The notes below the pieces were generated by a model. That model saw only the letters and a list, made by a program, of their open reading frames with translations, made no database searches and was not told the DNA's origin. Of a stretch of DNA of 64,000 bases, positions 1,896-49,250 are shown one piece after another. This DNA is from a virus (lineage: Duplodnaviria; Caudoviricetes). The stretch lies in the IMG/VR virus record IMGVR_UViG_3300037067_021792, one strand, 5' to 3'. Each line of letters starts with the position of its first letter. Within the stretch, counting starts at the first letter, position 1. Both the position numbers and the translations under genes were made by a program.

Positions 1896-2862
1896 TAATT
1901 CAGATATACTTTTGAGATGGTCAGTGGGGTCCCAAGACACCACTAAGCTGTCTGAGTATGAACATAATAAATTTATAGATTTTATCTGGCTTACTAAATT
2001 ATCGATTATATCTTTTCAAAAATGGTTTCCAAAAGCCCAATGTGTTCTACTATATAACGGGAATGAATTTAAAAAATTTTGCGACATGTTCTACCAGTCC
2101 GATCCTAAAATGCAGGTTAATATAGAAATTATAAATCAATATCAAAAGGTTATATCTGGTGAATGGAAAAATCCGTATCATTTCTATCCAAAAGGTGTTT
2201 GGTGGAAATGGATCCCCTTTAGGATTGATATTAACAAACATGAAATTGCAATAGATACTGATATTATCTGTATATCAAAACCTATAACGTGGTATGACTG
2301 GGTGACGGGTGACTCGAATATACTTGTTGCTCCCGAGCGGTATGAAACTGTATCAATCTCTACGACAGGAGATTATTGTAACCATCCTTTATTAAAAGGG
2401 AAGACGCCATATAATTGTGGCGTTGTTGGGCAGCGCAAGGGACAAGATTATACGGATAGATTTTTTGAAATAACCCAAGATGTCAAGTTCGGGCATAGCC
2501 ACAATAGCCTGTTTATAACTGAACAAGGTGCAATAAATTTGTGGGTAAGATCTCTGGAATCTGAAGGTGTTACGCATTGTTGTCTTGATTTTACCAAGAA
2601 TGCGTGGATGCGTGATTTTGTATACTTTTTGAGTAAGGGCATTTCAGTCGAGACAATACATGCTGTAGCGTGGCATAAGCAGATAGCAAAAGCACTCAGG
2701 GAAGAGATCGAGAAAAAAGTAATAGACGATACCTATACTAATGAACAGTTTCTAGCAGATGTTGTCAAAAGATCATCAAATTTAGATCAATTATCTAAGG
2801 CATTGATTCTTAAGCAGGTCGAAGGATTATTAAACTCGGAAACTTTGGTCCAATATTCGTAG
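1888..2862 (+). CDS. Putative GT-A glycosyltransferase
   Basis: IAIDTDII DxD motif, NCGVVG, and TEQGAIN resembling the DQ/EQ motif of GT-A enzymes. Confidence 0.55.
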   Translation: MFDNSDILLRWSVGSQDTTKLSEYEHNKFIDFIWLTKLSIISFQKWFPKAQCVLLYNGNEFKKFCDMFYQSDPKMQVNIEIINQYQKVISGEWKNPYHFYPKGVWWKWIPFRIDINKHEIAIDTDIICISKPITWYDWVTGDSNILVAPERYETVSISTTGDYCNHPLLKGKTPYNCGVVGQRKGQDYTDRFFEITQDVKFGHSHNSLFITEQGAINLWVRSLESEGVTHCCLDFTKNAWMRDFVYFLSKGISVETIHAVAWHKQIAKALREEIEKKVIDDTYTNEQFLADVVKRSSNLDQLSKALILKQVEGLLNSETLVQYS

Positions 2863-2956
2863 GTTGTGCGGACATCTGGAATAACGGTTTTTGAAGAAAC
2901 GCTCTTGTTTTATTGCTGGGTATACCGTATAATGTCAGAGTCAATTGAGGTAAAAC

Positions 2957-4750
2957 ATGGAATCACAATTTTCTGTTCAAGAAGAAATGTTCAAAGCTCT
3001 ACTTCGCACTCCGCATAGGCAGGTAGACGAAACCCTGCATTTGCACAAGTCTCAATTTGAGCGAGATCCAAACTTTTATGGTAAACTAGCCGCCTATTGT
3101 GTCATTGGTGAAAATTGTGCGGTTCGAGATATTAATGAGGTGTTCATTGCTACTTTATTGGTGTCTTCATATGAACAGCATCAAGAAGCCGGATATGTTA
3201 TGTTTCAGTCTCTTCCACCATATGAGGCGGACCGGGTGGCCAATTACGTCACTGGTTATGACGAGACCATAGTGCGGCATTCGTATGAGTCTGATATGCC
3301 CAAGCAGAACTCATTCGGCGTGACTTATGAAATTGCCAAATACGGAAGCAATCATCCCGATCCAGAGAAGAGAGGGAAGGATATGCCAGTTCGTGTTATA
3401 AAGCTTGGTAATAAAAGTAAATTGCGAGCTTTGCTTATAAAACAAAATAAAATCGACTACAATACTAAGGAAATCACCGCGACCACATATTTGGTTCACC
3501 ACAAGTGTTATAACCAGCGCAATTTTAAGGGCATATTGAAAAGAGCTGTTAAATCATATCTGAAATATCGAGAAAACAATCCAGCTATGATGGAAGGGGC
3601 TTTGATCCGTTCGGCACAGTCAATTAAGAAGTTTTATGTTCGCACCCATGCTTTACCTCTTGGTAATGCAAATAGTTGGATTAATCGATATTTGTTTGCC
3701 GATGAAACAATTCCTGGCACCAGATTACATGCTCTAAAAACGTTACAAAACGAGAAAGATCCAATTAGGCAGGCAGAAATTGTTACAGAAAATAATCTGC
3801 CGTTTACGGTTGTATCGTCTCTTATGTCTGATATTACTCCATCCGTTACGGCTGCATCGATTATGGTGATGTCTTATCAAGAGATTATGCAATCTATGGA
3901 CCTGTTAAAACGCCGAGGGGCTTTTGACAATCCAGATTTGAAGAAATTAATACATGACAAATTAGAAAAAGCCAAAAAAGCCAAAAAGGGCCGGATGGAT
4001 GCAATGAAGGGCAAAAAAGCCGCTAGCACTAAAGGTCTAGACAAAGACACTCAGTCTTTGTTGAAAGATATAACCGATCAGCAGCTAAAGCATCATAGCA
4101 ATATATCTGTTCCAACTGCTTTATTAATAGATAAATCAGGATCGATGACCGAGTCTATTAATCTGGGGAAGCAACTAAGTGCGGCTATAGCACAGGCATG
4201 TGCTCCTGGCAATGAACCTATCGTTTACCTATTCGATGCAACTCCAGTAGAAATTGAATGGAACAAGAAAGATGGAGATATAACATTACTCTCTAGTTGG
4301 GAGAAAAAGCTGGCAATGTTCCGGGCTAATGGCGGAACTGATCCTGCTGCGGTTCTAATGGCAATGGAACTTAAGAACCAGGTTGCAGACCAAATATTAT
4401 TAGTTACCGATGAGGGAGAAAATAATGAAGGGAAATTTGCCAAACAGCTTAAATCTTATTCAAAGAAAATGGGTGTAACACCTAATATCGTTATAGTACG
4501 AATTGGTAGTTCTGGATATGGAATACACGATATTATAGAAAAATCTCTCAAGAAAGCCGGATTTAATGTTACGGTTTTAGTTGCAACTGGAATTGACAGC
4601 GTTTCTTTACCTAACGTTATTCAGTTGCTTTCTTGTAAAAGTACATTTGAGTTAGTCCAGGAGATTTTGTCGTTGACTTTACCCACTCGCAGTGAGTGGG
4701 ACGCCAATAATCTTCTAAACGTTGTTAGTGAAGGAGTTCAAAGTGTCTAG
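2957..4750 (+). CDS. TROVE-like / VWA domain protein (Ro60/Rsr-related)
   Basis: N-terminal LLRTPHR..DPNFYGKLA helical region; C-terminal VWA MIDAS motifs LIDKSGSM, GGTD, LVTDEGEN. Confidence 0.75.
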   Translation: MESQFSVQEEMFKALLRTPHRQVDETLHLHKSQFERDPNFYGKLAAYCVIGENCAVRDINEVFIATLLVSSYEQHQEAGYVMFQSLPPYEADRVANYVTGYDETIVRHSYESDMPKQNSFGVTYEIAKYGSNHPDPEKRGKDMPVRVIKLGNKSKLRALLIKQNKIDYNTKEITATTYLVHHKCYNQRNFKGILKRAVKSYLKYRENNPAMMEGALIRSAQSIKKFYVRTHALPLGNANSWINRYLFADETIPGTRLHALKTLQNEKDPIRQAEIVTENNLPFTVVSSLMSDITPSVTAASIMVMSYQEIMQSMDLLKRRGAFDNPDLKKLIHDKLEKAKKAKKGRMDAMKGKKAASTKGLDKDTQSLLKDITDQQLKHHSNISVPTALLIDKSGSMTESINLGKQLSAAIAQACAPGNEPIVYLFDATPVEIEWNKKDGDITLLSSWEKKLAMFRANGGTDPAAVLMAMELKNQVADQILLVTDEGENNEGKFAKQLKSYSKKMGVTPNIVIVRIGSSGYGIHDIIEKSLKKAGFNVTVLVATGIDSVSLPNVIQLLSCKSTFELVQEILSLTLPTRSEWDANNLLNVVSEGVQSV

Positions 4751-5099
4751 AAACATTATTCCTGAAATCCCTTACGAGAAGGCTATTCGTAATTTGATGG
4801 GGAATCAATGGAGATCATTACCCGACAGGGACAGGGATGGAGCATGGGGTATTGCTATCGCAAAATCAATATCGAATGGTGTAAAGCCGGATCTATACGA
4901 AATTGCGTTACATTTGGGGGTTGATGTGGATATGATACGCACTGCGTTCGGCCGAATGTCCATGAACGGGGCACTACTGAGAGACCGAATACACAAAGAT
5001 CATGATCTCGCAAATGACGATTCGTTGGCATTGGGTTATTATGCTGGGTATGCATCGGGCTATTGTGGACCGTTGAGAGATGCCAAATCAACCACCTAA
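4743..5099 (+). CDS. Hypothetical protein
   Basis: GTG at 4743 after AGGAG SD; its last codons and stop lie inside the IS right-end relic. Confidence 0.55.
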   Translation: MSRNIIPEIPYEKAIRNLMGNQWRSLPDRDRDGAWGIAIAKSISNGVKPDLYEIALHLGVDVDMIRTAFGRMSMNGALLRDRIHKDHDLANDDSLALGYYAGYASGYCGPLRDAKSTT

Positions 5100-5340
5100 C
5101 CGCTAAAGTTAGGTTTGCTCCTCAATAGGAACGATTGGCTAGTTGATAGTAGCCTGCCTATTAAGTTCAGTCCTCCATCGAGTGGAGAAGAAAACGAAAT
5201 AGGGTGTTTAGAACCATGAGCTTCTTGAGTTTGAACGTATTTTCTAGCTATGTTAATCGCGGCATTCCAGTCCGCGTCAAACACAGCACCATCAGAAGCA
5301 TAAAACCTACATCCCTTGCGCTCTCCTCCACTAAGACCGG
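5088..5340 (-). mobile_element. tnpB: IS200/IS605-superfamily (TnpB) 3' remnant with right end
   Basis: Minus frame encodes GERKGCRFY..FDADWNAAINIARK (TnpB RuvC-III-like motif), followed by hairpin ACCTAAC-TTTAGCG-GTTAGGT and terminal GGTTGA. Confidence 0.7.
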
Positions 5341-5440
5341 AGCTGATATACATGCTGATGCTGATTATGCTTTGAGACACGCTGCTGCTAATGGCCATCT
5401 AGATGTGGTTGAATACTTAAATACCTGCAATGCAAAATGA
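5339..5440 (+). pseudogene. Ankyrin-repeat gene 3' fragment
   Basis: GADIHADADYALRHAAANGHLDVVEYL closely matches repeats in 56875..57588; no genuine 5' part. Confidence 0.75.
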
Positions 5441-6281
5441 TTTATTTAAAAACATTGTTAAAATGGAGCGGGAATTTCGCACAAAAGAATTTCTCGCTCC
5501 TTATACCGAGGAATCTAAGATCGCCATTATTAAAATGGATGGTCTTAATTATAGATTTCACATCGGCGGGTTTTCTGGCTCGGGTATTGGAAAATTCATT
5601 CCGATATCTCCTACTTATGCTGAATATACAGGCGAAGCCGATCAATCTTTAGTTAGATCGTATTTTAACAGTCTTCTATCTCTTAGAGTTATTTTGTGCT
5701 ATGAAACGAATTTCGGGTGGGTTGCTTATCCCGCCAGCATTAATGTGGCACGAAATAAGTTTTCTCTAGATGGGGAACTTGTTGTTAAAAATGCTTTTGA
5801 CAATCGCTTTGACGTAGTATTGGCCAGATTCGACGGTTTGCATTTTTGGTCCGATGGCATCTGCCCAACAAATTCATTTAAATCTAAGTGTATGCGAGAT
5901 TGTTTTGTGCCCAAATACACTCCAGACCAAATGAGAGAAGCACTGAAGAAAATACCAAATATAACTCCGGAAGATAATTGTGCTTTTGAGTTGGCAATAT
6001 CATCAGCCGAAAATATTCTTAATGAATATCTTACTACAGGTGGTGGTTCGTTGACCTCGTATATAGTGCAAGGTCCTAATATAGAAATTAAGTGGAAATC
6101 GGCTGCTGGTAATAGCTATACTTCATTGGTGGATAAAGAATCGCTAGATGTTATTTCTACTGGTGTGTGTTTGACAAATGATACATTACATCTAAAAGAC
6201 CTACCATTTTTGGCTGAGTCTATCGAGAATTATCGAGTGCCAATACGTAATATAGATTTTAATGGTATTGAGGATTTTTGA
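5430..6281 (+). CDS. Conserved hypothetical protein, likely partner of the TROVE/VWA gene
   Basis: EFLAP..GLNYRF..WVAYP..RFDG..FW..STGVCL pattern, which I recall from proteins encoded beside this VWA family in bacteria (recall only). Confidence 0.55.
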   Translation: MQNDLFKNIVKMEREFRTKEFLAPYTEESKIAIIKMDGLNYRFHIGGFSGSGIGKFIPISPTYAEYTGEADQSLVRSYFNSLLSLRVILCYETNFGWVAYPASINVARNKFSLDGELVVKNAFDNRFDVVLARFDGLHFWSDGICPTNSFKSKCMRDCFVPKYTPDQMREALKKIPNITPEDNCAFELAISSAENILNEYLTTGGGSLTSYIVQGPNIEIKWKSAAGNSYTSLVDKESLDVISTGVCLTNDTLHLKDLPFLAESIENYRVPIRNIDFNGIEDF

Positions 6282-6284
6282 ATA

Positions 6285-6788
6285 ATGATAGCGCCAAATA
6301 GACCTACGTGGGATGAAACATTTATGTCAATGGCTTTAGTGTATTGTCTCAGGTCTCCCGACCCTGCAACGAAACATGGGGCTATTATAGTTGATTCTCA
6401 ACATCATCCAATGGGGTGGGGGTATAATGGGTATCCTAAAGGCGGAACAATTGATTTATATCCAACTACCCGACCTGCAAAATATAGGCACATAGCCCAT
6501 TCAGAACTTAACGCCCTGCTGAATAGGACAATTAATACAAAAGGTGGCACTGTATATGTAACAGGGCATCCTTGTTGTGGGTGCATGGTAGCAATGATTC
6601 AGGCAAGTATACGAGAAATAATCTATGGCAAAATTGGATCTCATTGTGTTAATAAAGAAGATTGGGATGCGGTTAATTTGATGTCTGTAGATTGTGGTGT
6701 AAAACTTACTGCGTATTCCGGAAGATATCCCGTTGATATCTATAATGAAGTGAAGGATTATCTCAAATTAAAAGAATGGACCGAATAA
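6285..6788 (+). CDS. dCMP deaminase
   Basis: RPTWDE..SPDP..GYNG..HSELNAL..PCCGC zinc motifs. Confidence 0.9.
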   Translation: MIAPNRPTWDETFMSMALVYCLRSPDPATKHGAIIVDSQHHPMGWGYNGYPKGGTIDLYPTTRPAKYRHIAHSELNALLNRTINTKGGTVYVTGHPCCGCMVAMIQASIREIIYGKIGSHCVNKEDWDAVNLMSVDCGVKLTAYSGRYPVDIYNEVKDYLKLKEWTE

Positions 6789-6798
6789 GGAGAATATT

Positions 6799-7104
6799 GT
6801 GACAGAAATTGAGAAAATATGTGACATGGGCAAATGCTTATCTATTCTTCCCCTCCAAGATTTAAGTAATAGAGATCTAACATGCTTATATGCTGCACAA
6901 CTAATTAAAAATAATGGAGAGAATATTGATGCTCGTGATATTCTTGATGAACTAGACAGACGAGCGGATGATTGGCAACAGAAAATTTATGAAGCGGAAA
7001 AAAAGCGAGATGAAGCCGTATATGAAAAAGAACATTTAGAAACTATTATTTCTCAGATTGAGGATGCTATGAAATCTGTCGATAAAATTTTGGAGAACGA
7101 ATAA
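6799..7104 (+). CDS. Hypothetical coiled-coil protein
   Basis: ORF with AAGGAG SD. Confidence 0.65.
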   Translation: MTEIEKICDMGKCLSILPLQDLSNRDLTCLYAAQLIKNNGENIDARDILDELDRRADDWQQKIYEAEKKRDEAVYEKEHLETIISQIEDAMKSVDKILENE

Positions 7105-7889
7105 TGCAAAGAGTAAAACCAGAAGTATATCTAATTTCCTACCCGCAAATAGATGAGAATGAAGTCAAAAGATGGCTTAAAGATATTGGAGGGGAAAAGG
7201 TTTTAGAACATCTTAGTGGTACTGATGCTGAAAAAGTAATAGAATTAGCAGGCAGAGAGTGTTATAGGTCTTTTGATGTTGGTCTCAACCCTAACGTTAC
7301 CAAGATCAGGGATAATAGTGAAGAATACATAGGGAATTTAATTCAAAGTGAGCACGGAGCAGTCCTTGAACATGCTCAATGTGTGTGGGTATTTGAGAAT
7401 ATTTCTCGCGTTATGACTCACGAGCTGGTCCGGCATAGGGTTGGAGTTGGATATTCTCAAGTAAGCCTACGATATGTAAGGTTGAATGAATTAAAATTCT
7501 GGCTCCCGCCAGAAATTGAGAATAATCCAGAAGCAGTAGAATTGTTCGAAAAAATAATTAAAGATCTCGAACAAGCACAAAATAAATTGGCCGAAATATA
7601 TGGTATTGACGATGAGTCTTTTAAGACAAAGAAGAAACTAACATCTGCTTTTCGTCGTATCGCACCCATAGGTTTAGCAACTGGTATTGTGTTTTCCTGT
7701 AATATGCGGGCATTGCGGTGGATTATTCAATTGAGAACAGGTGTTGCATCAGAAGTTGAAATACGACAAGTATTTAATAAAGTATATGATATTGCATCTC
7801 AGAAATGGCCTTATCTGTTTCAGGATTTTGTTAAAATTGACACTGGCGATGGATTGTTTGAGTGTAAACCAAAACATAGCAAGGTCTAG
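7104..7889 (+). CDS. thyX: Flavin-dependent thymidylate synthase
   Basis: AGRECY, HGAVLEH, HELVRHR-x7-S-LRY signature. Confidence 0.95.
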   Translation: MQRVKPEVYLISYPQIDENEVKRWLKDIGGEKVLEHLSGTDAEKVIELAGRECYRSFDVGLNPNVTKIRDNSEEYIGNLIQSEHGAVLEHAQCVWVFENISRVMTHELVRHRVGVGYSQVSLRYVRLNELKFWLPPEIENNPEAVELFEKIIKDLEQAQNKLAEIYGIDDESFKTKKKLTSAFRRIAPIGLATGIVFSCNMRALRWIIQLRTGVASEVEIRQVFNKVYDIASQKWPYLFQDFVKIDTGDGLFECKPKHSKV

Positions 7890-7892
7890 TTT

Positions 7893-8192
7893 GTGAAACT
7901 TGTAGGCGATGATATTTTTGTTAGGATCAAGGTAGTCGAGGAAATTAACAAGAAAGTCCTGGAAGTTGCTAAGGAAATAGTCGATAAGAATATTAGGTGG
8001 TATGGTGCTGATGAAAAATCAGCCGAAGATGTTGCTGATGTTATGCTGGAGCATTTCGATCTAAACGAATTTACTTCCGAAGAATTTGATTTTGCAGTGA
8101 CGTGGATACATTTTTATTGTGCAGTAAAAACTGCTTATGAAGCCGGGATATTAAAGGATGACACTGATATTCCACCCGGGCTGATAGATTAA
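7893..8192 (+). CDS. Hypothetical protein
   Basis: 99-aa ORF, in frame with thyX after its TAG. Confidence 0.6.
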   Translation: MKLVGDDIFVRIKVVEEINKKVLEVAKEIVDKNIRWYGADEKSAEDVADVMLEHFDLNEFTSEEFDFAVTWIHFYCAVKTAYEAGILKDDTDIPPGLID

Positions 8193-8261: not shown

Positions 8262-8468
8262 ATGAAGAGTAGAATTACCAAGAGGATCACAAACAGCAAG
8301 AGACACACGATCGGGTATAAGATCGACGGCAAGGAACGGAGTGTTTCACAGGCAGTCCAGATGGCAAGACAGAATCGGCTCTATGGAGTTCGGGTAGTCG
8401 CAAATCACCTACAGACTCCGCCAGGTGGACGACGCAAGCTTTTGGACCTTCCTGTTGTAGTTAAGTAA
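8262..8468 (+). CDS. Small basic protein (DUF3892-like)
   Basis: ATG after AAGGAG; C-terminal LLDLP resembles NLxxLP. Confidence 0.45.
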   Translation: MKSRITKRITNSKRHTIGYKIDGKERSVSQAVQMARQNRLYGVRVVANHLQTPPGGRRKLLDLPVVVK

Positions 8469-8576
8469 AGTTTAAATTTTAGAAATATTATATTATTTTA
8501 AACGACGGGACGCTGTTTATTGCGTGGCTAAAAGTCAAATTAGTTAAATTATTAAATTATTGGTTTATTAGAAAAT

Positions 8577-8620
8577 TGAGCCTGGTTGCCTTGAAAGCCA
8601 GGCTCAACCCTTTATATAAT
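8577..8620 (+). promoter_or_regulatory. topA promoter with -35 inside an inverted repeat
   Basis: TGAGCCTGG..CCAGGCTCA hairpin encloses TTGAAA; TATAAT at 8615-8620. Confidence 0.5.
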
Positions 8621-8659
8621 ACTCACGGTTCCCTTGACGCTTAATTTTATGGAGATTCA

Positions 8660-9934
8660 ATGTCCAAAAAAGTAATTATCATTGAAGCACCAAATAAGGT
8701 TAATGGGTATAAGAAATACGCGGGTAAAGAGTATGATGTCCTGGCTTCATATGGGCACTGTGTGGACCTTCCCGAAAAGGGTTTGGGTATAAATATTAAA
8801 AAATCCTTTGAACCCACTTTTGAAGTTAAGGATGATCATCAGGATACAATTAATGCTATTAAATCTAAATGTGCTAAATCTGATTTAGTATTATTAATGA
8901 CAGACCCAGATCGTGAAGGTGAAGCAATATCATTCCACATTTATGAGCAAATTAAAGATATTGCCAAGAAAGTATTACGAGCTTCAACTAGCGAAATTAC
9001 AGCATCGGGTATTAAGAAGGCTATAGAAAATGCCGGAGAACTAGATCAAGGTAAAATTAATGCTTATCTGGCTCGCCGATTACTAGATAGATTAGTGGGT
9101 TATCGAACTAGTTTTTTAACTCAGCAGGCCACGGGCGGTAAATCGGCGGGCAGGGTGCAAAGTGCTGTATTACGGATTTTGGTTGACCGCGAAAATGAAA
9201 TACTTCACTTTATTCCTGAAGAATACTGGATTTTTACGGCTCGGCTCTTGTCGAGTAAAAATGAGCAATATACTGCTTCACTATCAGATAAATTCAAAGT
9301 CCCAAATGAAGCAGAGGCTACAAAAATATACGATGCCGTTATTGGGGGGAATCCAGTTGTTGCCAGTGTTGAATCAAAAGATGTGAAATCTAATCCTTAC
9401 GCTCCGTTCGCCACCATGCCTCTTATTGCTGCTGCGTCCTCGATTTTGGGATGGCAAACTAAAAAGACAATGGATGTGGCTCAGAACCTGTATAGTAACG
9501 GATTAATCAGCTATCATCGTACCGATTCGGTCACAATAGCAGAAGAACCAATGCAGGCAATACGAAATTATATTTCTCACACCTATGGGTCAGATTATAT
9601 TCCGGATAAACCCAACTATTACAGTGCAAAAAAAGGAGCACAGGAAGCCCACGAAGCGTGTAGACCAACGGATATTTCTAACGTTCATCCGTCAGCACCT
9701 GAGGATAACGGGAAACTATACGAAATAATTTGGCGCAGAACAGTAGCTAGCCAAATGACTCCTGGGCTAGATAAAAAATCGAAAGTGATTACTGATATTT
9801 CTGAATATGAATTTGTGTCAAATGGCAATCAAATGTTATTCGACGGGCATCGGCAGGTTTGGCATTATGGGAAATCAGATGATGTTATTTTGCCAAATTT
9901 GTTCGGAGGCGAAAAGTGTAAATTGTTAACCTGA
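8660..9934 (+). CDS. topA: DNA topoisomerase IA, N-terminal part
   Basis: TOPRIM IIEAPNK and DPDREGE, SAGRVQS, catalytic-Tyr motif LISYHRTDS, AQEAHEACRPT; stops at GEKCKLLT. Confidence 0.92.
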   Translation: MSKKVIIIEAPNKVNGYKKYAGKEYDVLASYGHCVDLPEKGLGINIKKSFEPTFEVKDDHQDTINAIKSKCAKSDLVLLMTDPDREGEAISFHIYEQIKDIAKKVLRASTSEITASGIKKAIENAGELDQGKINAYLARRLLDRLVGYRTSFLTQQATGGKSAGRVQSAVLRILVDRENEILHFIPEEYWIFTARLLSSKNEQYTASLSDKFKVPNEAEATKIYDAVIGGNPVVASVESKDVKSNPYAPFATMPLIAAASSILGWQTKKTMDVAQNLYSNGLISYHRTDSVTIAEEPMQAIRNYISHTYGSDYIPDKPNYYSAKKGAQEAHEACRPTDISNVHPSAPEDNGKLYEIIWRRTVASQMTPGLDKKSKVITDISEYEFVSNGNQMLFDGHRQVWHYGKSDDVILPNLFGGEKCKLLT

Positions 9935-9944
9935 AGGAGTTCGA

Positions 9945-11102
9945 ATGATAACCCAATCTGCCACTTATGGCGACGAATATTTAACTACGATAGTAGCCAG
10001 TCAGGCTGCTCATATTTTGGGAACAAATCCCGCAAATTTAATCATGTATTCAGAGGGACAATTTCTTAAAGGTGTTTTTTCTGGCCTATCTTATTGTAAA
10101 ACAACAACCATTGGCACCGATGGATCGATGCCTAATAAACTTCATAACTTTTTGCAATTATGTGAAATGCGTGATAACTCTGACATAAAATTTGTTCGGG
10201 CATGTGTATCATTTGGGCCATATGGGGTTTCGATCTATTATATTTTCATAGAAAAGGGTAAGGCGTTTAAAGCTAAAAGATCTTTAATAAGACTTTCGGC
10301 TCGGCTTAATCCTCCCATTGCGCCTGTATTGAATGACGCACTGTGGGGTGATTTAATCGATAATACTGTTGGATTTTTTAAAAAGGCTCGGGATTATAAG
10401 GCATACGGCGTCAAGACGACTCGGGGAATAATACTTTCTGGTCCACCCGGGAATGGGAAATCAATGTTTTGTGATTATCTTATACGATGCTTTAATAATC
10501 GCGGAATTGATGTTATGGTGTATACATCGAGAGATCTCATTAAAACAATAATAGATAATAGAAATCCGTTCGATTTCAGGGTGATTTTTGTAGATGACGT
10601 TGATATAGACTTCTTTTCTAGGAAATCTAATTCCGAGATGGCATGCAGCCTGCTTTCTTGTCTAGATGGGTGCAAAAAAACATCTTCTGTTGCACTGAGA
10701 ATATTTTCTACTAATGAATCTATCAAAAATATAGATCCGGCTTTTCTCAGACCAGGGCGAGTCGATAAGTGTTTTTCTTTTGACAATCCTAACACTGAAT
10801 TAAGGAAGAAATTTATCAATACTTGGAATCAGAATATTTTGGATGGTATTGATGTGCCCGAATTTATTAATCGTTCTGAGGGATTTAGCTTTGCAGACAT
10901 GGATCTTGTTAAGCAGGTTTTAGTTTCTAACTTTCTTTCATCCGGTAAGTGGGATATGTCAGTAGCAATCGGAGAGTTCGAGAGTAGATGTAGTGTAGAA
11001 AGTCACAGAAAAACTGGTATAGGATTTGATAATCTGAAATCTGCAGAAGAATCAATACCAAAACCGACAGGACCAAAACCAATAAGAGGAATGCATGAGT
11101 GA
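9945..11102 (+). CDS. AAA+ ATPase inserted between the topA halves
   Basis: Walker A GPPGNGKS, Walker B IFVDDVD, SRH STN..IDPAFLRPGRVD; AAGGAG SD. Confidence 0.9.
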   Translation: MITQSATYGDEYLTTIVASQAAHILGTNPANLIMYSEGQFLKGVFSGLSYCKTTTIGTDGSMPNKLHNFLQLCEMRDNSDIKFVRACVSFGPYGVSIYYIFIEKGKAFKAKRSLIRLSARLNPPIAPVLNDALWGDLIDNTVGFFKKARDYKAYGVKTTRGIILSGPPGNGKSMFCDYLIRCFNNRGIDVMVYTSRDLIKTIIDNRNPFDFRVIFVDDVDIDFFSRKSNSEMACSLLSCLDGCKKTSSVALRIFSTNESIKNIDPAFLRPGRVDKCFSFDNPNTELRKKFINTWNQNILDGIDVPEFINRSEGFSFADMDLVKQVLVSNFLSSGKWDMSVAIGEFESRCSVESHRKTGIGFDNLKSAEESIPKPTGPKPIRGMHE

Positions 11103-11883
11103 TATTATAAATAAGCATCCGGGATTAACTGCCGAGCGAAAAGAAACCCAGCCCCCGCCAAGATATTCAGACGCGAGCTTGGCAAAGATTTGCGAGAAAG
11201 AGCAGATAACTCGTCCTGCGACTTTTAAAGGTGTAATTGACACCTTAAAAGCTAGGAAGTATATAACCCAAGAGAAAAAATCTTTCAACCCTACCGAGGT
11301 AGGGATGAAGGTTGTCGAGTTTCTTAGACAAGCAGATATGTGTTTTATTGATATAAAGTTCACGGCTAAAATGGAAGAGCTGCTAGATGATGTACAAAGT
11401 GGTACCAAAGATAAGATAGAAGTCCTCGATAAATTTTGGGAACGGTTGCAGAAAGACATCGCCAATGGTAAGCAAATTAAATCTGCAGGTGAAGTATCTG
11501 AATATAAGTGTCCTAAATGCGGAGGATCATTGCTTAAGAAATTTAGCAAATTCGGTCCATTTTTTGCTTGTCAGAACTCCAAAAAACTGACCCAGAAGCA
11601 GATAGATGCAGGGGAAGAATCTCCGTGTGACTACATTGCTAGTGTCGGGAAAAGTGGAGAACCACTTACTAAACAAAAAGTTGAAAAAGAGTACGCGTCA
11701 TTTCCCTGTAAGAAATGCGGAGAAAAGATGGTTAAAAGACACTCGAAATTTGGGTCGTTTTTCGGATGTGAAAAATTTCCGTCCTGTAAAACTACCGCAG
11801 ATTTAGAGGGTAATTTTAAGGAATCATCTGGTAAGAAATTCAAGAAGTATAAGAAATACAAAAAGAAAGCAGATGACGAGTGA
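11095..11883 (+). CDS. topA: DNA topoisomerase IA, C-terminal part with two Zn ribbons
   Basis: TQPPPRYSDASL..ITRPATF, FTAKMEELLD, two C4 ribbons, Lys-rich tail; own AGAGGA SD and ATG. Confidence 0.9.
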   Translation: MSDIINKHPGLTAERKETQPPPRYSDASLAKICEKEQITRPATFKGVIDTLKARKYITQEKKSFNPTEVGMKVVEFLRQADMCFIDIKFTAKMEELLDDVQSGTKDKIEVLDKFWERLQKDIANGKQIKSAGEVSEYKCPKCGGSLLKKFSKFGPFFACQNSKKLTQKQIDAGEESPCDYIASVGKSGEPLTKQKVEKEYASFPCKKCGEKMVKRHSKFGSFFGCEKFPSCKTTADLEGNFKESSGKKFKKYKKYKKKADDE

Positions 11884-12042
11884 CAGCCAAAGAACAAAGC
11901 AAAGAGTTTTTAAAAAAAGTCGAAGGATGCTGCGGTATTTGGCTGCTTCCTGAACAATGGAAAACGGTTCTATTGGCGCTACATTTTGCAGCAGAGGAAG
12001 ACTTGTCGAGTATAATTAGACAGCAGATAGATAGTATATACC

Positions 12043-12597
12043 ATGATAATATGCCCAACCCTACAAGATGTGATTAAATTCGCCACCAAACGGCACAGAC
12101 ATATTAATGCGCAATCAGGTGGAGTTACTGCATGGAAAATGTTGCGCAAGCCAGATGGATCTCGTATACCGTTCGAAGAGGTTAGAAGTTTTCGCATATT
12201 TGATTGGGTAGCCGATGAAGCAGACAAGCTTCTTACTATTGACTCTATAGCCGTTGGCACGGCCTTTAAGGGCAACAAAAGGATATCTCAGATAAATAAG
12301 CTGTATTTATATGATTTGTCGGTCATAAATATATACGACCACTCTGCTGAATTTTTTAGTAAGAGCAGTATTGATCTGTGGTATATGGAAAACGATAACT
12401 CATTTGTTTCTGTCTCCTCTATAGAACAACTATCAATGAATAATTGGGTTAAGGATACTCCTGATATAGTACGAGCAAGATGGGTAGCACCAGATGAAGA
12501 TTTCGATAGAATTTCTGAAGAGCTTTGTATCGGACGAAAGGTTGTTGAAGTTGTAGACGAGTCTAGAAATTTTGATATGGATTTTGAAGATTTATAG
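12043..12597 (+). CDS. Hypothetical protein
   Basis: 184-aa ORF in operon context. Confidence 0.6.
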   Translation: MIICPTLQDVIKFATKRHRHINAQSGGVTAWKMLRKPDGSRIPFEEVRSFRIFDWVADEADKLLTIDSIAVGTAFKGNKRISQINKLYLYDLSVINIYDHSAEFFSKSSIDLWYMENDNSFVSVSSIEQLSMNNWVKDTPDIVRARWVAPDEDFDRISEELCIGRKVVEVVDESRNFDMDFEDL

Positions 12598-15440: not shown

Positions 15441-17306
15441 GTGAGTAAAATTGTTGGCGTGGATCTTGGCACTACTAATTCGGTTGTCGCCATTGTAGAA
15501 AATGGACAGCCAAAAGTATTAATTAATAGCAGCGGTGGCCGCACTACTCCGTCTCTGGTTTCATTTAATAAATCCGAGAGGATTGTTGGTCAACGAGCTA
15601 GGAATCAGCAGGTTTTAAATCCTAAGAATACAATTTATTCTATCAAGCGATTTATGGGAAGGCGACATTCTGAAGTTAGCGCAGAAGAAAAGACTGTTCC
15701 ATATACAATAGTGGGTGGTCCGGAAGAACTGGTTAAGGTCAAAGTTGATGATAGGGACTACGCCCCTCCAGAGATTTCCGCAATGATATTGAAAGATCTC
15801 AAGACGACTGCTGAAACATATTTTGGGCACGAAATAACTGAAGCGGTTATCACTGTCCCCGCATATTTTAATGATGCCCAGCGACAGGCCACAAAAGAAG
15901 CCGGGCAGATTGCTGGGTTTGATGTTAAGAGAATTATCAACGAACCCACTGCTGCTGCTCTATCATATGGTCTGAATAAAAAGAAGCAGCAAAAAATAGC
16001 TGTTTTTGATTTGGGTGGTGGAACCTTTGATATTTCAGTTCTTGATATTGGAGATAATGTTTTTGAGGTTCTTAGCACTAACGGCGACACCCATTTAGGC
16101 GGTGATGATTTTGACGCCGCATTCGTTGACTACATTGCAGAAGAATTCAGAAAGGTGGAAGGTATCGATCTTCGAAAAGATCCGATGGCTCTACAGCGGT
16201 TAAAGGATTCTGCTGAAAAGGCTAAGTGTGATTTATCATCAAGTCTCGAAACTCAAATATCCCTACCTTTCATTACTGCAGATTCCAATGGACCGAAGCA
16301 CCTAAATCAAACTATAACTCGTTCTAAATTTGAGCAAATAATTTCTGGTTTAATTCAGCGTTGTAGAAATCCAGTTATGCAAGCACTTAAAGACGCCAAT
16401 TTAACACCGAAGGATATAGATGAGGTTATACTGGTCGGTGGCTCAACCCGCGTTCCCGCAGTTCGTGCTTTGGTAAAAGAGATGTTCGGCAAAGAGCCAA
16501 ATTCTAGTGTAAATCCCGATGAGTCGGTAGCCATTGGTGCTGCTATACAAGGATCAATATTAAGCGGAGAATCCTCAGATATTGTTTTACTTGATGTCAC
16601 ACCGCTTTCTTTAGGTGTTGAAACCCTTGGTGGCGTTATGACTGTTTTAATTCCAAGAAACACCACTATACCGACCACTAAAAAAGAGACATTCTCAACT
16701 GCCGCAGACAATCAACCTGGAGTAGATATACATATTCTCCAGGGCGAGAGAAAGATGGCAGATTCCAACAGAACTTTAGGCAGATTTCAATTAGCAGATA
16801 TACCATCTGCACCTCGTGGTGTGCCACAAATTGAGGTTAATTTTGATATAGACGCTAATGGCATTTTGCACGTATCTGCTAAGGATCTTGGCACTGGAAA
16901 ACAGCAATCCATAGAGATTAAGTCGTCATCTGGATTAAGCGATGATGAGGTTAAACGAATGGTGGATGATGCGCAGAAATATTCGGAAGAGGATGCTAAT
17001 AAAAAGGAATTGGTAGATGCAAGAAACCAGGCTGATAATCACATCTATCAAGCCGAGAAGATGATGAAAGAGCATGGGGATAAAATACAAAATAAGTCCG
17101 ATGTTGAATCTGCTGTCAGCGCAGTCAAGGACGCCATTAAAACCAATGATAAGGATTCTATTAAAAAATCCTTAGATGTTCTCAATACCGCTTTGCATAA
17201 AGCCAGCGAAGATATCTATAATGCTAATAAAGCAGCGACTCCTGATATACCCGTTGGCGAGACGCCGACAAATGTAGTAGATGCAGAGTATTCAGTAAAG
17301 GATTAA
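15441..17306 (+). CDS. dnaK: Hsp70 chaperone DnaK
   Basis: [33 protein letters not shown]; full length. Confidence 0.98.
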
Positions 17307-45303: not shown

Positions 45304-46683
45304 ATGTCTGAACGAGCTTTGCTTGGAACACCGCCCGTTTCGTTTAACGAAGTAATTAAAGAAGACACGACTATAGAATATGCAATGGTTGTCAAGGCCA
45401 TTTGTGAACAATATGGGATTAAACCGCAGGATTTGAGACAAATTACCTACACGTATACTACATGGGATGTCAAGAGCGAGAGCAAGATAAGACATATTCG
45501 TCAGGTTCCTCACAAAATTTATATCCCAGAATCCCTAGCACCTAATACCAGGGATGAAAATGAGACTCCGGTTCTAAACTTAACCATGTCTCCAAATCCG
45601 ACATTAGATGACCCATATGATGCCGGAATACACGAATATGAAATTAATGCCAACAGGGGCAAAATTCGAATGTGGAGATGGAGAGGATTCCGTAATTATG
45701 CGCCTCTGGGAAGCTACGTGGAATTTGTTGAGCATTGCAATTTGAAGAAGTTTTATCGATTTATTTTAGAGAGCCAAAATGATATTCCAGATGCCCTTCA
45801 ACCTGTTCTAGAGCCTGAAAAATTACGAGATATTTATGCGAATAGTATCGGGTTTCTTGAACGAGGCCAGTCGATGCTTAAGACATATAAAGAGCACAAT
45901 ATACCCTGCAAGAGAGGATTGCTATTAGCCGGATGTCCCGGCGGGGGAAAAACGTATACTTGCAAGTGGCTGCGACAATTATGTGTTAGGAAAGGATTTG
46001 ATTATAAAGTTGTTACTTTCGAGGATTACCGTAATGCTTTGTCTCGTGGCACTGTTAGTAGCTTATTTAGGTTAGCTCCAGGAGAATGGGGTATTATCTT
46101 TTTTGATGACATGGAAATGGCCTTACAGCCTAAAAGCTCGGGAAATACTCATGTTAACACATTCTTAACTGAACTAGATGGAATCGAGCCCACAGAGGGT
46201 ATAGTATATATATTTACATCTAACCAAATAGAAGATCTCGATACAGCTTTTGTTCGTCCTGGTCGTATTGACGTATTTATGATTTTTCAAGCACCAAATA
46301 AAAAATTAAGAAGAGTATATATTGAGAATCGTTTTCACGCCGATTTGCTAAAAACATTAGGTGCTAACATTGCGAACAAAGACGATGAAATTATTAAAGA
46401 TATTATAAATAGGACCGAAAGCTATACATTTGCCGAAATCGAGGAAGTGCGTAAATTGATGACTATTGATTTTTTGGATGGAAAAGAAGTTAGTGTAGAA
46501 AAAACCTTTAAATTATTTGAAAAACATCGGCAGGAATTTGCAGATCGGCTTAAATTCGGGTTTGGAAAAATGGGCGAAAGCGCAGATGATTATGACGGAG
46601 ACTGCGGAGAAGATTGGGCGTCCGAATTTGTTCTTCCGCCGCCATATAGTCCTGTTGACCTTCTTCGCCGGAGGATGACGTGA
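45304..46683 (+). CDS. AAA+ ATPase related to 9945..11102
   Basis: GCPGGGKT, IFFDDME, TSN..LDTAFVRPGRID. Confidence 0.9.
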   Translation: MSERALLGTPPVSFNEVIKEDTTIEYAMVVKAICEQYGIKPQDLRQITYTYTTWDVKSESKIRHIRQVPHKIYIPESLAPNTRDENETPVLNLTMSPNPTLDDPYDAGIHEYEINANRGKIRMWRWRGFRNYAPLGSYVEFVEHCNLKKFYRFILESQNDIPDALQPVLEPEKLRDIYANSIGFLERGQSMLKTYKEHNIPCKRGLLLAGCPGGGKTYTCKWLRQLCVRKGFDYKVVTFEDYRNALSRGTVSSLFRLAPGEWGIIFFDDMEMALQPKSSGNTHVNTFLTELDGIEPTEGIVYIFTSNQIEDLDTAFVRPGRIDVFMIFQAPNKKLRRVYIENRFHADLLKTLGANIANKDDEIIKDIINRTESYTFAEIEEVRKLMTIDFLDGKEVSVEKTFKLFEKHRQEFADRLKFGFGKMGESADDYDGDCGEDWASEFVLPPPYSPVDLLRRRMT

Positions 46684-47150: not shown

Positions 47151-47594
47151 TCAGTCTGTCTTGACCGGAATTTGTTTCCGGTCAGAACCATTTGCAATCT
47201 TAGGGCAAGTTACCGATAGGACTCCATCTCGGAGCGATGCAGATATCTGGTCTTTGTCTACATTAGGCATGTAGTAAGACCTTGTGCTCTTGCCATAATA
47301 TCGCTCTTTGTGTCGAGATTGTCCTTCCTCGTTATCCTTTCTGGTTTCAGATGTAATAGTTAAAGTATTATCGCCATATTCGACTTTTATGTCTGTTTCC
47401 TTTGTGCCTGGTACTTCGGCTTTGACTGTGAACGAACGGTCACTTTCACTAAAGTCTGAAACAATACTAGTAGTTGGCCAATTCCAGTCCGGCCATCCCA
47501 GCATTATATCAGCAAGACCCCGCTCAAAAACAAATCCGAACGGGTCATACGAACTAAAGATACCAAGCCTTTGCTTTTTGGATAACTCATTCAT
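47151..47594 (-). CDS. Hsp20 small heat-shock protein
   Basis: AEVPG..DIKVE..LTI..ERYYG..ASLRDGVLSVTCPK..IPV. Confidence 0.92.
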   Translation of the reverse strand: MNELSKKQRLGIFSSYDPFGFVFERGLADIMLGWPDWNWPTTSIVSDFSESDRSFTVKAEVPGTKETDIKVEYGDNTLTITSETRKDNEEGQSRHKERYYGKSTRSYYMPNVDKDQISASLRDGVLSVTCPKIANGSDRKQIPVKTD

Positions 47595-47621: not shown

Positions 47622-49250
47622 TTACATGCCGTCCATTTGTGGATGTTTGTCATTCTCTTCTTTGGGCACATCGGCGACTACAACGTTTGTAGTCAAAAGC
47701 AAGCCACCGATACTCGCTGCATTTTGTAGGGCACATCGTTCTACTTTAACTGGCACCAATACACCCATCGAAACAAGATTTCCATATTGCCCGGTTAGGG
47801 CATTATACCCGAAATTAGGGTCAGTAGAATTTTGTACTTTCTCCAACACAATTGCGCCTTCAACGCCAGCATTAAGGGTTATCTGGCGTATTGGAGCACA
47901 TAGGGCTCGCTTAACAATGTCCACGCCTGTTTTCTCGTCTAGCGTGAGAGAATTATCATTAAGTAAATCATTCAGCGCCCTTGTTGCCCTTACTGGTGCA
48001 ACTCCACCACCAGGCAAAACACCTTCCTGCACGGCCGCTCGGCACGCGTGAAGGGCATCATCAATGCGGGCTTTCTTTTCCTTCATTTCTGTTTCAGTCG
48101 CAGCACCAACATTGATCTGGGCAACACCACCTGAAAGCTTTGCTAGCCGTTCTTCTAACTTCTCTTTGTCGTAATCGCTATTACTTGATTCGATAGCAGA
48201 TTTAATCTGATTAATGCGCCCCTTAATTGCTTCAGGGTTACCTGCTCCATCGACAATAGTAGTATCATCCTTGGTGATTTTGACTTTCTTGGCTGCTCCA
48301 AGAATTTCAAGTCCTAGATTTTCGAGCTTTTCACCAAGTTCTCCAGTGATGGCTCTGGCACCAGTTAGAATGGCAATATCTTCGAGCATTGCCTTTCTAC
48401 GATCGCCAAAACTAGGTGCTTTTGTGGCACAGCATTTAAGAGTTCCACGAAGTTTATTGACAACTAGAGTTGCCAACGCTTCACCTTCGATATCCTCGGC
48501 GACAATCAGTATTGACTTATTTGCTTGTGATACTTGTTCGAGTATTTTTACGATATCTTTGACGGTTGTTAGCTTTTTGTCATACAGAAAAATGTATGGT
48601 TCTTCGAGTTCGCACTCCATTGTTTCAAGGTCAGTAGCAAAATGCGGAGATTTATATCCTTTATCAAATTGCATTCCTTCAACTAGCTCTACATATGTAT
48701 CAACTGTTGTGCCTTCTTCGATAGTAATAACACCGTCTTTCCCGACTTTATCCATAGCTTCTGCAATTTGCTCACCAATGGCTGCATCCTGGTTGGCTGC
48801 ACTGGTTCCAACCTGCGCTATTTGTTTTGTGTCGGTTACGTCAATTTTCATTTTCTTAAATTCTTCGACAACAACTTCGACTGCCTTGTCGATACCTCGT
48901 TTAAGGCTCATTGAATCAGCGCCAGCTACAACGTTCTTGAGCCCTTCCTCAAATATCGCTTCTGCATAAATCGTAGCAGTTGTTGTTCCGTCGCCCGCAG
49001 TATTGGAAGTTTTATTGGCAACCTCTTTGACCATTTGGGCACCAACATCCTCGTAAGGATCTTTTAGATCAATTTCGTTAGCTACGGTTACACCATCTTT
49101 GGTGATAACAGGTGTGCCGAAGTCTTTCTTGATGATTACATTGCGGCCACGAGGCCCTAGAGTTTCTTTGACTGCCCGAGCAAGTTTCTTTACACCATTA
49201 CGAATGGACTCTCTGGCTTGTTGATCATAAAGCATTTCTTTTGCGCTCAT
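47622..49250 (-). CDS. groL: Chaperonin GroEL
   Basis: [45 protein letters not shown]. Confidence 0.98.

Follow-up and report, generated by a model that had tools for sequence, protein, structure and literature searches.

Gene Layout at the Locus

The 64,000-nt window analyzed here (IMG/VR record IMGVR_UViG_3300037067_021792) belongs to a phage-like genome of roughly 270 kb (a contig of 270,634 bp) and contains, on its + strand, a type IA topoisomerase gene in two parts with a gene for an AAA+ ATPase between them. The first part of the topoisomerase (the N half, 8660–9934) is 424 residues long, carries the Toprim domain and the catalytic tyrosine, Tyr285 (in the motif SYHRTD), and stops two residues beyond GEKCKL, in GEKCKLLT followed directly by TGA. 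It is separated from the next gene by a 10-nt spacer (9935–9944) containing the ribosome-binding site of the ATPase gene, AGGAG, which lies 6 nt ahead of the ATPase ATG at 9945. The ATPase (9945–11102; 385 residues) matches the Pfam family AAA (PF00004) and is of the classical AAA type, similar to Bcs1 and YjoB. The second part of the topoisomerase (the C half, 11095–11883; 262 residues) comprises the remainder of the core, a pair of C4 zinc ribbons and a tail rich in lysine. It begins with a leader of 10 added residues, MSDIINKHPG (11095–11124), the start codon of which overlaps the ATPase stop codon (ATGAGTGA). The overlap between the two genes is 8 nt, in an ATGAgTGA geometry, and GAGGA is found upstream of the C-half ATG. 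Coordinates and sequence of the three open reading frames (ORFs) agree with a previous sequence-only reading of this DNA, which had described the N-half end, the ribosome-binding sites and a C-half ATG on the ATPase stop.

A sigma-70-like promoter match, TTGAAA-18-TATAAT (8591–8620, + strand), agrees with the consensus at 11 of 12 positions and lies 40 nt upstream of the N-half start. It overlaps a terminator-like hairpin (8576–8607, + strand) made of a 12-bp stem and a subsequent T-containing tract. No + strand promoter match of comparable strength was seen inside the three genes. The upstream element, known only as a match to the consensus, probably marks the start of a three-gene transcription unit.

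A Type IA Topoisomerase in Two Pieces

By Pfam, the N half consists of Toprim (PF01751, E = 2e-16) and of Topoisom_bac (PF01131), of which it covers profile positions 2–307 out of 411. The C half takes up the same profile at positions 311–410, followed by two Zn_ribbon_Top1 matches. A PHROG made up of uncharacterised, topoisomerase-like phage proteins is divided in the same way, the first gene matching its positions 3–471 and the third its positions 478–713. Residues 71–458 of E. coli TopA (structure 1ecl_A) correspond to residues 42–419 of the N half, and TopA residues 464–575 to residues 11–122 of the C half. In this numbering, the last N-half residue, 424, falls on TopA position 463 and C-half residue 11 on position 464, while in a second structure, 6ozw_A, the split maps to 477/478. 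An alignment with 11 unsplit homologues gave the same register, with GEKCKL-LT and LTAERKETQPP of the two halves set against GEKCTL-KS-LLKEQKFTSPP of a continuous chain. Since the two residues fall on adjacent TopA positions, no core residue has been lost, as the sequence-only reading had claimed. Neither polypeptide contains a complete core, which is shared between the two ORFs at 1ecl_A 463/464.

The catalytic residues E9, D82/D84 and Y285-x-R-T-D (with R287 and D289) are invariant among the split N halves, bearing out the earlier description of the catalytic motifs as intact. Judging from these alignments, the product is a type IA topoisomerase in two pieces that has all of its catalytic residues and a putative relaxation or decatenation activity. 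Most of its homologues are single chains of 655–690 residues, and the closest unsplit homologue of the N half is 64% identical to it. Chains of reverse gyrase gave weak matches that cover topoisomerase parts only.

Integrity of the Locus

Contigs from two studies (a landfill run of 2018 and a groundwater run of 2022) match positions 8400–12100 with 0 differences; one of them may be the source of the window itself. A third study, run X3, yielded a 1969-bp contig that aligned to 9524–11363 with 264 substitutions and 19 gap positions, or ≈85% identity. This contig spans the end of the N half, the ATPase and the start of the C half, with a spacer of 11 nt and an overlap of 8 nt. The ATPase that it encodes (cluster P0002) is 81% identical to that of the window and keeps all of the motifs described below. 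The same three-gene order is thus found in a related phage, where the sequence-only reading had suggested looking for it, and is not unique to one assembly. Among the 40 differences listed for the X3 contig, 31 are substitutions in the N half, and 26 of these 31 fall on third codon positions, a sign of purifying selection.

Rfam gave no match to a group I or II intron, either in positions 8400–12100 (at E values up to 1) or in six relatives. The tails added to the two halves are 2 and 10 residues long, far less than an intein, whole or split, would require, and the only non-coding DNA in the slot between the halves is the 10-nt spacer. The earlier conclusion that neither an intron nor an intein is present was therefore upheld, and, taken together, the contigs, the diverged relative, the Rfam searches and the codon positions exclude assembly error, pseudogene, intron and intein as explanations.

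A heterodimeric TopA, as previously suggested, gains indirect support from the contiguity of the halves, the intact catalytic residues, the third-position bias and the presence of the same two-piece gene in many relatives.

We also considered a joint in run X2 that connects position 9657 to position 11350 with 505 letters between them. It has flanks of 26 nt, comes from another organism and fits the length of an unsplit gene, but it is weak evidence and was not used. Among cultured phages, no close relative was turned up by blastn, and tblastn with the ATPase gave distant matches only. Searches of IMG/VR with single proteins returned no relatives, nor did a search of the JGI metagenomes with an alignment of the two closest ATPases.

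The Same Split Site in Relatives

The topoisomerase gene is broken at the same site in at least 10 of the 120 clusters closest to the N half. These split N halves end within 2–3 residues of one another, a few residues beyond GEKC.L, while ≈106 of the 120 clusters are full-length, unsplit orthologues. In a tree of the 120 N-terminal regions (a quick maximum-likelihood calculation in FastTree, without clade tests), the split alleles are scattered, each beside unsplit sisters. The window groups with the split allele P0040 and the unsplit P0038.

The contents of the slot are known for those relatives whose neighborhoods could be read. In L005, a gene with a LAGLIDADG_2 domain (5408–6418) lies between the N half (4081–5355) and the C half (6408–7184). 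L007 has the same order, with the LAGLIDADG_2 gene (4317–5075) overlapping the N half (3061–4338) and the C half (5044–5814). In L011, the N half is cut by the contig end, and the LAGLIDADG_2 gene (902–1636) is followed by the C half at 1602–2360. The N half of L013 is off the contig, but a gene that ends at 466 and contains the LAGLIDADG-type motif LNWFIGDGS precedes a C half that starts at 459. The assignment in L005, L007 and L011 is to PF03161, and that in L013 was made by the motif. In L006, the N half is followed by a slot (2030–3677) with an HTH_17 gene, a LAGLIDADG_2 gene and two ORFans of 134 and 85 residues, after which the C half starts at 3677. The slot can accumulate cargo, as these four genes show.

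L012 has both halves, separated by a 229-bp remnant (1034–1262). In the stretches compared, the 5′ end of this remnant is identical to that of the endonuclease gene of L007, and the 3′ end is closely similar to the 3′ end of that gene. Loss of the endonuclease thus leaves the topoisomerase split. In six relatives, the slot is occupied by an endonuclease or what remains of one, five with a LAGLIDADG homing-endonuclease gene and one with the remnant, making LAGLIDADG genes the commonest occupant. Other contents were found as well. L009 and L010 have an ORF of 123–126 residues between an N half and a C half. L094 has an N half followed by an ORF of 83 residues, with the C half beyond the stretch reached. 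In L008 (2518–4565), an N half of 424 residues is joined by a TGATG overlap to a KdsA-like (DAHP_synth_1) gene, and the contig ends before any C half.

The start of the C half is also shared. All split C halves start with a leader of the form M..II(N/D).HPGL, to which (V/T)AE is joined, whereas unsplit proteins have L.(K/R)EQK at this place. The leader of the window, MSDIINKHPGL, differs little from MSKIINTHPGL of L006, and others read MTDIIDKGLG (L013), ..KIQKHPGL (L005) and MSINTHPGL (L011). In L013, the C-half start overlaps the stop codon of the endonuclease gene as ATGAcTGA, the counterpart of ATGAgTGA in the window. The aligned leaders indicate that the window leader is homologous to those of C halves located downstream of LAGLIDADG genes.

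Break points at other positions were noted in related topoisomerases. Two more distant C halves, P0163 and P0164, start immediately ahead of GIGRPATY, one with an unrelated N-terminal extension of 70 residues, and the N half P0052 (447 residues) ends after QPPPR. The gene therefore has at least one further break point and seems to have several insertion sites. Homing endonucleases are dense in these phages: the split topoisomerase of L005 is surrounded by several HNH_3 and LAGLIDADG-like genes (1326–2258, 7242–8108 and 10255–11211). In L007 (60–1988), a ThyX of 642 residues has matches in the order Thy1, LAGLIDADG_3, Thy1, and probably contains an intein.

The AAA+ ATPase

The ATPase has a Walker A motif, GPPGNGKS (residues 166–173), a Walker B motif, FVDDVD (with D217 and D218), and FLRPGR (267–272) in the second region of homology. 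These three motifs, including the arginine fingers of the last, and the sensor 1 residues T256-N257 are invariant across the family. An Asp in Walker B takes the place of the usual Glu. YjoB and Bcs1 carry the same replacement and are still active ATPases, and both act on folded or near-native proteins (PMC9565160).

An AlphaFold model of the ATPase had a mean predicted local distance difference test score (pLDDT) of 83 and a predicted template-modeling score (pTM) of 0.75. It shows an N domain (residues 7–121) built of a helical element, five strands and a second helical element, followed by a classical AAA module. Residues 354–385, with pLDDT < 50, form a tail that is predicted to be disordered. 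The top full-length matches in Foldseek were YjoB (7w42) and Bcs1 (6sh3), aligned over ≈370–420 columns with TM-scores of only 0.40–0.45, followed by the modules of p97, the proteasomal ATPases and FtsH. Pfam BCS1_N did not match the window ATPase. The region of AFG2 that contains pore loop 1 (KY(L/V)G, an aromatic-hydrophobic-Gly motif) is a gap in the window ATPase and is not conserved in the family, which argues against a threading role like that of ClpX.

An exhaustive profile-free search placed 161 clusters in the ATPase family at E < 1e-30, nearly all of them 350–430 residues long. Only P0002 is more than 50% identical to the window protein. Relatives at 30–39% identity align from residue ≈70 to the end, and the N domain therefore belongs to the family. 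Such relatives were read in ≈14 contigs from ≈10 distinct lineages, and none of them adjoins a topoisomerase. Their neighbors include ClpP, an aminotransferase, a DNA methylase, GDPD, dUTPase and ThyX, among others. The ClpP gene overlaps that of the ATPase relative in L002–L004 and is 2.2 kb off in L025.

We examined the N-terminus of the ATPase as a possible decayed endonuclease or helix-turn-helix domain. Pfam matched no domain, LAGLIDADG included, on residues 1–150 at E values up to 10, and the best BLASTP match between the middle gene and four slot endonucleases had an E value of 2.3. From residue ≈70 onward, the sequence is common to free-standing relatives. The candidate was rejected.

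The family has a conserved hydrophobic-Gly-Phe motif near its C-terminus, IGF in the window (11019–11027, + strand). Across the family it reads basic-hydrophobic-Gly-Phe/Tyr. Of 150 members, 64 have it 5 residues or less from the C-terminus, and 100 have [VILMF]GF within their last 45 residues. In the window protein, 24 residues follow it, a tail that runs to 11099 and is absent from most of the family. The X3 relative has most of its indels in this tail, as deletions at 11028–11093. An extra tail that is disordered and rich in indels fits an ATPase gene that lost its own stop codon when it was joined to the slot, and the 24 residues may represent read-through into junction sequence. The conserved motif itself may be a docking motif. 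Its interpretation as a ClpP-docking signal, similar to the IGF loop of ClpX, was prompted by the ClpP genes in L002–L004 and L025 but was set aside as speculation: most contexts of the family lack ClpP, and the family lacks the pore-loop-1 motif. The 64-kb window contains no ClpP gene.

A paralogue of the ATPase is encoded at 45304–46683 (+ strand). It is 27% identical (E = 4e-31), with the same N domain and architecture and an FGFG motif near its C-terminus. Genes for Hsp20 (47151–47594) and GroEL (47622–49250), both on the − strand, are located near it, and an Hsp70 gene (15441–17306, + strand) lies 30 kb upstream of the paralogue. The chaperone set of this phage, with Hsp20, GroEL and Hsp70, is unusually full. 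The gene in the slot probably encodes a chaperone-like remodeling ATPase of a family that is common in large phages. Other genes in the window encode dCMP deaminase, ThyX, a phage metallopeptidase, a clamp loader, a sliding clamp and a polymerase, from which the genome looks like that of a very large phage.

Origin of the Divided Gene

We consider it probable that the topoisomerase was divided by a homing endonuclease, and that the endonuclease was later replaced by a passenger ATPase gene. The conserved site, the endonuclease genes in the slot, the shared leader, the scattered distribution of split alleles and the lack of a splicing element together form the signature of a homing-endonuclease cassette. 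Phage genes are usually split by homing endonucleases, as the sequence-only reading had noted, and this accounts for the split site. In the most likely course of events, a free-standing LAGLIDADG cassette would have inserted between the codons that match E. coli TopA 463 and 464, bringing with it a stop codon for the upstream piece and a new ribosome-binding site, a start codon and the leader of ≈10 residues for the downstream piece. In the lineage of the window, the endonuclease ORF would then have been exchanged for the Bcs1/YjoB-like AAA+ gene, between the stop codon of the N half and the ribosome-binding site of the C half. The three genes would be transcribed from one promoter, with coupled translation. 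The two topoisomerase polypeptides would reassemble non-covalently, possibly helped by the leader, into an ordinary, ATP-independent relaxing or decatenating enzyme. The ATPase would be a passenger that works elsewhere, its placement inside an essential gene assuring its expression and retention.

Several points weigh against this history. There is no trace of an endonuclease in the 64-kb window, and since no remnant is left there, we infer the replacement from the relatives, among which no intermediate with an endonuclease and the ATPase together in the slot was seen. The ATPase layout has been kept through ≈15% nucleotide divergence, with translational coupling to both halves, as might equally be expected if the genes were functionally linked. 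In its predicted structure, the ATPase is similar to chamber-type chaperones and may therefore have a role in assembling the halves. Some of the split alleles may have a leader in common because they descend from one ancestor, and not through co-transfer with an endonuclease. The tree was a quick FastTree calculation without formal tests.

One alternative is an ancient, vertically inherited fission of the gene in a single phage lineage, the slot being simply an intergenic region of variable content that endonucleases and other genes entered later. The single leader common to all split C halves and the great diversity of slot contents are consistent with such a history. However, the split alleles do not group together in the N-half tree but are scattered among unsplit sisters, which calls either for many re-fusions or for horizontal spread of split and leader as a unit, and the latter is what homing does. 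The predominance of LAGLIDADG genes in the slot likewise argues against fission by descent, and we regard it as unlikely.

Alternatively, the ATPase could be a working third subunit or a dedicated assembly chaperone, making the locus an ATP-dependent type IA machine with an AAA+ module that is functionally comparable to reverse gyrase. The three-gene layout and the intact ATPase motifs are kept in the ≈85% identical relative, ribosome-binding sites and overlapping stop and start codons link the genes, and the activity of YjoB and Bcs1 on folded or near-native proteins (PMC9565160) would be in keeping with a role in assembly. However, between the same halves relatives have an endonuclease, a KdsA-like gene, ORFans or no functional gene at all, from which it follows that this ATPase is dispensable for the halves. 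In the contigs read, the more distant relatives of the ATPase are never beside a topoisomerase, the paralogue sits among chaperone genes, and only one other cluster (P0002) has the arrangement. The three-subunit topoisomerase-AAA+ machine that had been proposed earlier was not borne out by these comparisons, and we think it quite improbable. There is only a slim chance that the ATPase was recruited to an existing break because it aids assembly or couples ATP to the topoisomerase, in a three-gene system unlike reverse gyrase.

The suggestion that the ATPase gene behaves as a selfish insert held for the site but not for the agent. The site is that of a selfish element, as a LAGLIDADG gene is found at the same codon in relatives, while the ATPase is a later occupant without a nuclease domain. 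The ATPase gene fills the break exactly, with no spare DNA, as might be expected if it were itself the mobile element that cut the topoisomerase gene. However, it has no nuclease, integrase or transposase domain and does not resemble the endonucleases. In relatives, LAGLIDADG genes are found at exactly this site together with a homologous C-half leader, and the more distant family members, in the ≈14 contigs read, are ordinary free-standing genes. The TTAAC that had been pointed out at both junctions, and that might be taken as a target-site duplication, is a chance match, since 49% of random pairs of 30-nt stretches from the window have a 5-mer in common. It is thus very unlikely that the ATPase gene was the agent of the split.

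Implications and Comparison with Known Systems

Genes broken into pieces by a free-standing homing endonuclease are an event of a known kind. Our searches of the literature on split phage topoisomerases brought up no type IA enzyme, and the present locus extends genes in pieces to the type IA topoisomerases of large environmental phages. Besides the host gene, two features are new: TopA 463/464 is a site at which LAGLIDADG genes recur and a leader is conserved, and at this one codon unrelated cargo genes have taken the place of the endonuclease. The relatives form a natural series at this codon, in which the gene is unsplit, or the endonuclease is present, decayed or replaced (by the AAA+ gene, a KdsA-like gene or ORFans). 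This series suggests that a selfish element can leave behind, within an essential gene, a break that later serves as a protected landing site for other genes, one that is expressed with the host operon and hard to delete. The cut at TopA 463/464, together with the conserved 10-residue leader, also amounts to a ready-made design for making a type IA topoisomerase in two pieces. On the present evidence, the locus probably does not reveal a new ATP-driven topoisomerase, and a type IA topoisomerase assisted by an AAA+ protein is unlikely.

Reverse gyrase, which has a two-gene form in Nanoarchaeum, is similar to the window locus in that a type IA core adjoins an ATPase. In reverse gyrase, however, an SF2 helicase-like module is fused to or paired with the N-terminal side of a complete core, whereas here a classical AAA protein (PF00004) of the Bcs1/YjoB type is encoded inside the coding sequence of the core, and cooperation between the two is unsupported. 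Mitochondrial Bcs1 (6sh3) and B. subtilis YjoB (7w42) have in common with the window ATPase a classical AAA module and the Asp in place of the Walker B Glu, and the predicted alpha/beta domain at the N-terminus of the window ATPase may be a counterpart of theirs. The sequence identity is 13–18%, and the window ATPase has no membrane helix and carries the family-specific C-terminal hydrophobic-Gly-Phe motif.

Fractured genes with split inteins, with an endonuclease gene between the halves, were reportedly described by Dassa et al. in 2009. They share with our locus the two half-genes around a slot for a selfish element, but the halves described here have only 2 and 10 extra residues and no intein blocks.

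In phage T4, the large subunit of topoisomerase II is encoded in working pieces by genes 39 and 60, which have mobA between them (PMC2988022). As in the window, a phage topoisomerase is made in separately encoded pieces through a mobile endonuclease, and extra ORFs are found between the pieces. The T4 enzyme, however, is a type II, ATP-dependent topoisomerase and its endonuclease is of the HNH type, while the enzyme described here is of type IA and has no ATPase of its own.

Similarly, nrdA of phage Aeh1 is split by mobE, a free-standing HNH endonuclease gene, and yields working pieces (Friedrich et al. 2007; Crona et al. 2010, PMC3045599). In both cases, an essential phage gene has been turned into two ORFs by a free-standing cassette, with no intron or intein and with short tails derived from the element. 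The differences are that the gene affected here encodes a type IA topoisomerase, that the endonuclease in the relatives is of the LAGLIDADG_2 type, and that the slot of the window no longer has an endonuclease but an unrelated AAA+ gene. By analogy with Aeh1, non-covalent reassembly of the pieces would be expected for the topoisomerase as well. The element-derived tails of Aeh1 NrdA are essential for its assembly (PMC3045599), and the two-piece TopA provides a test case for whether such tails drive assembly here as they do in NrdA.

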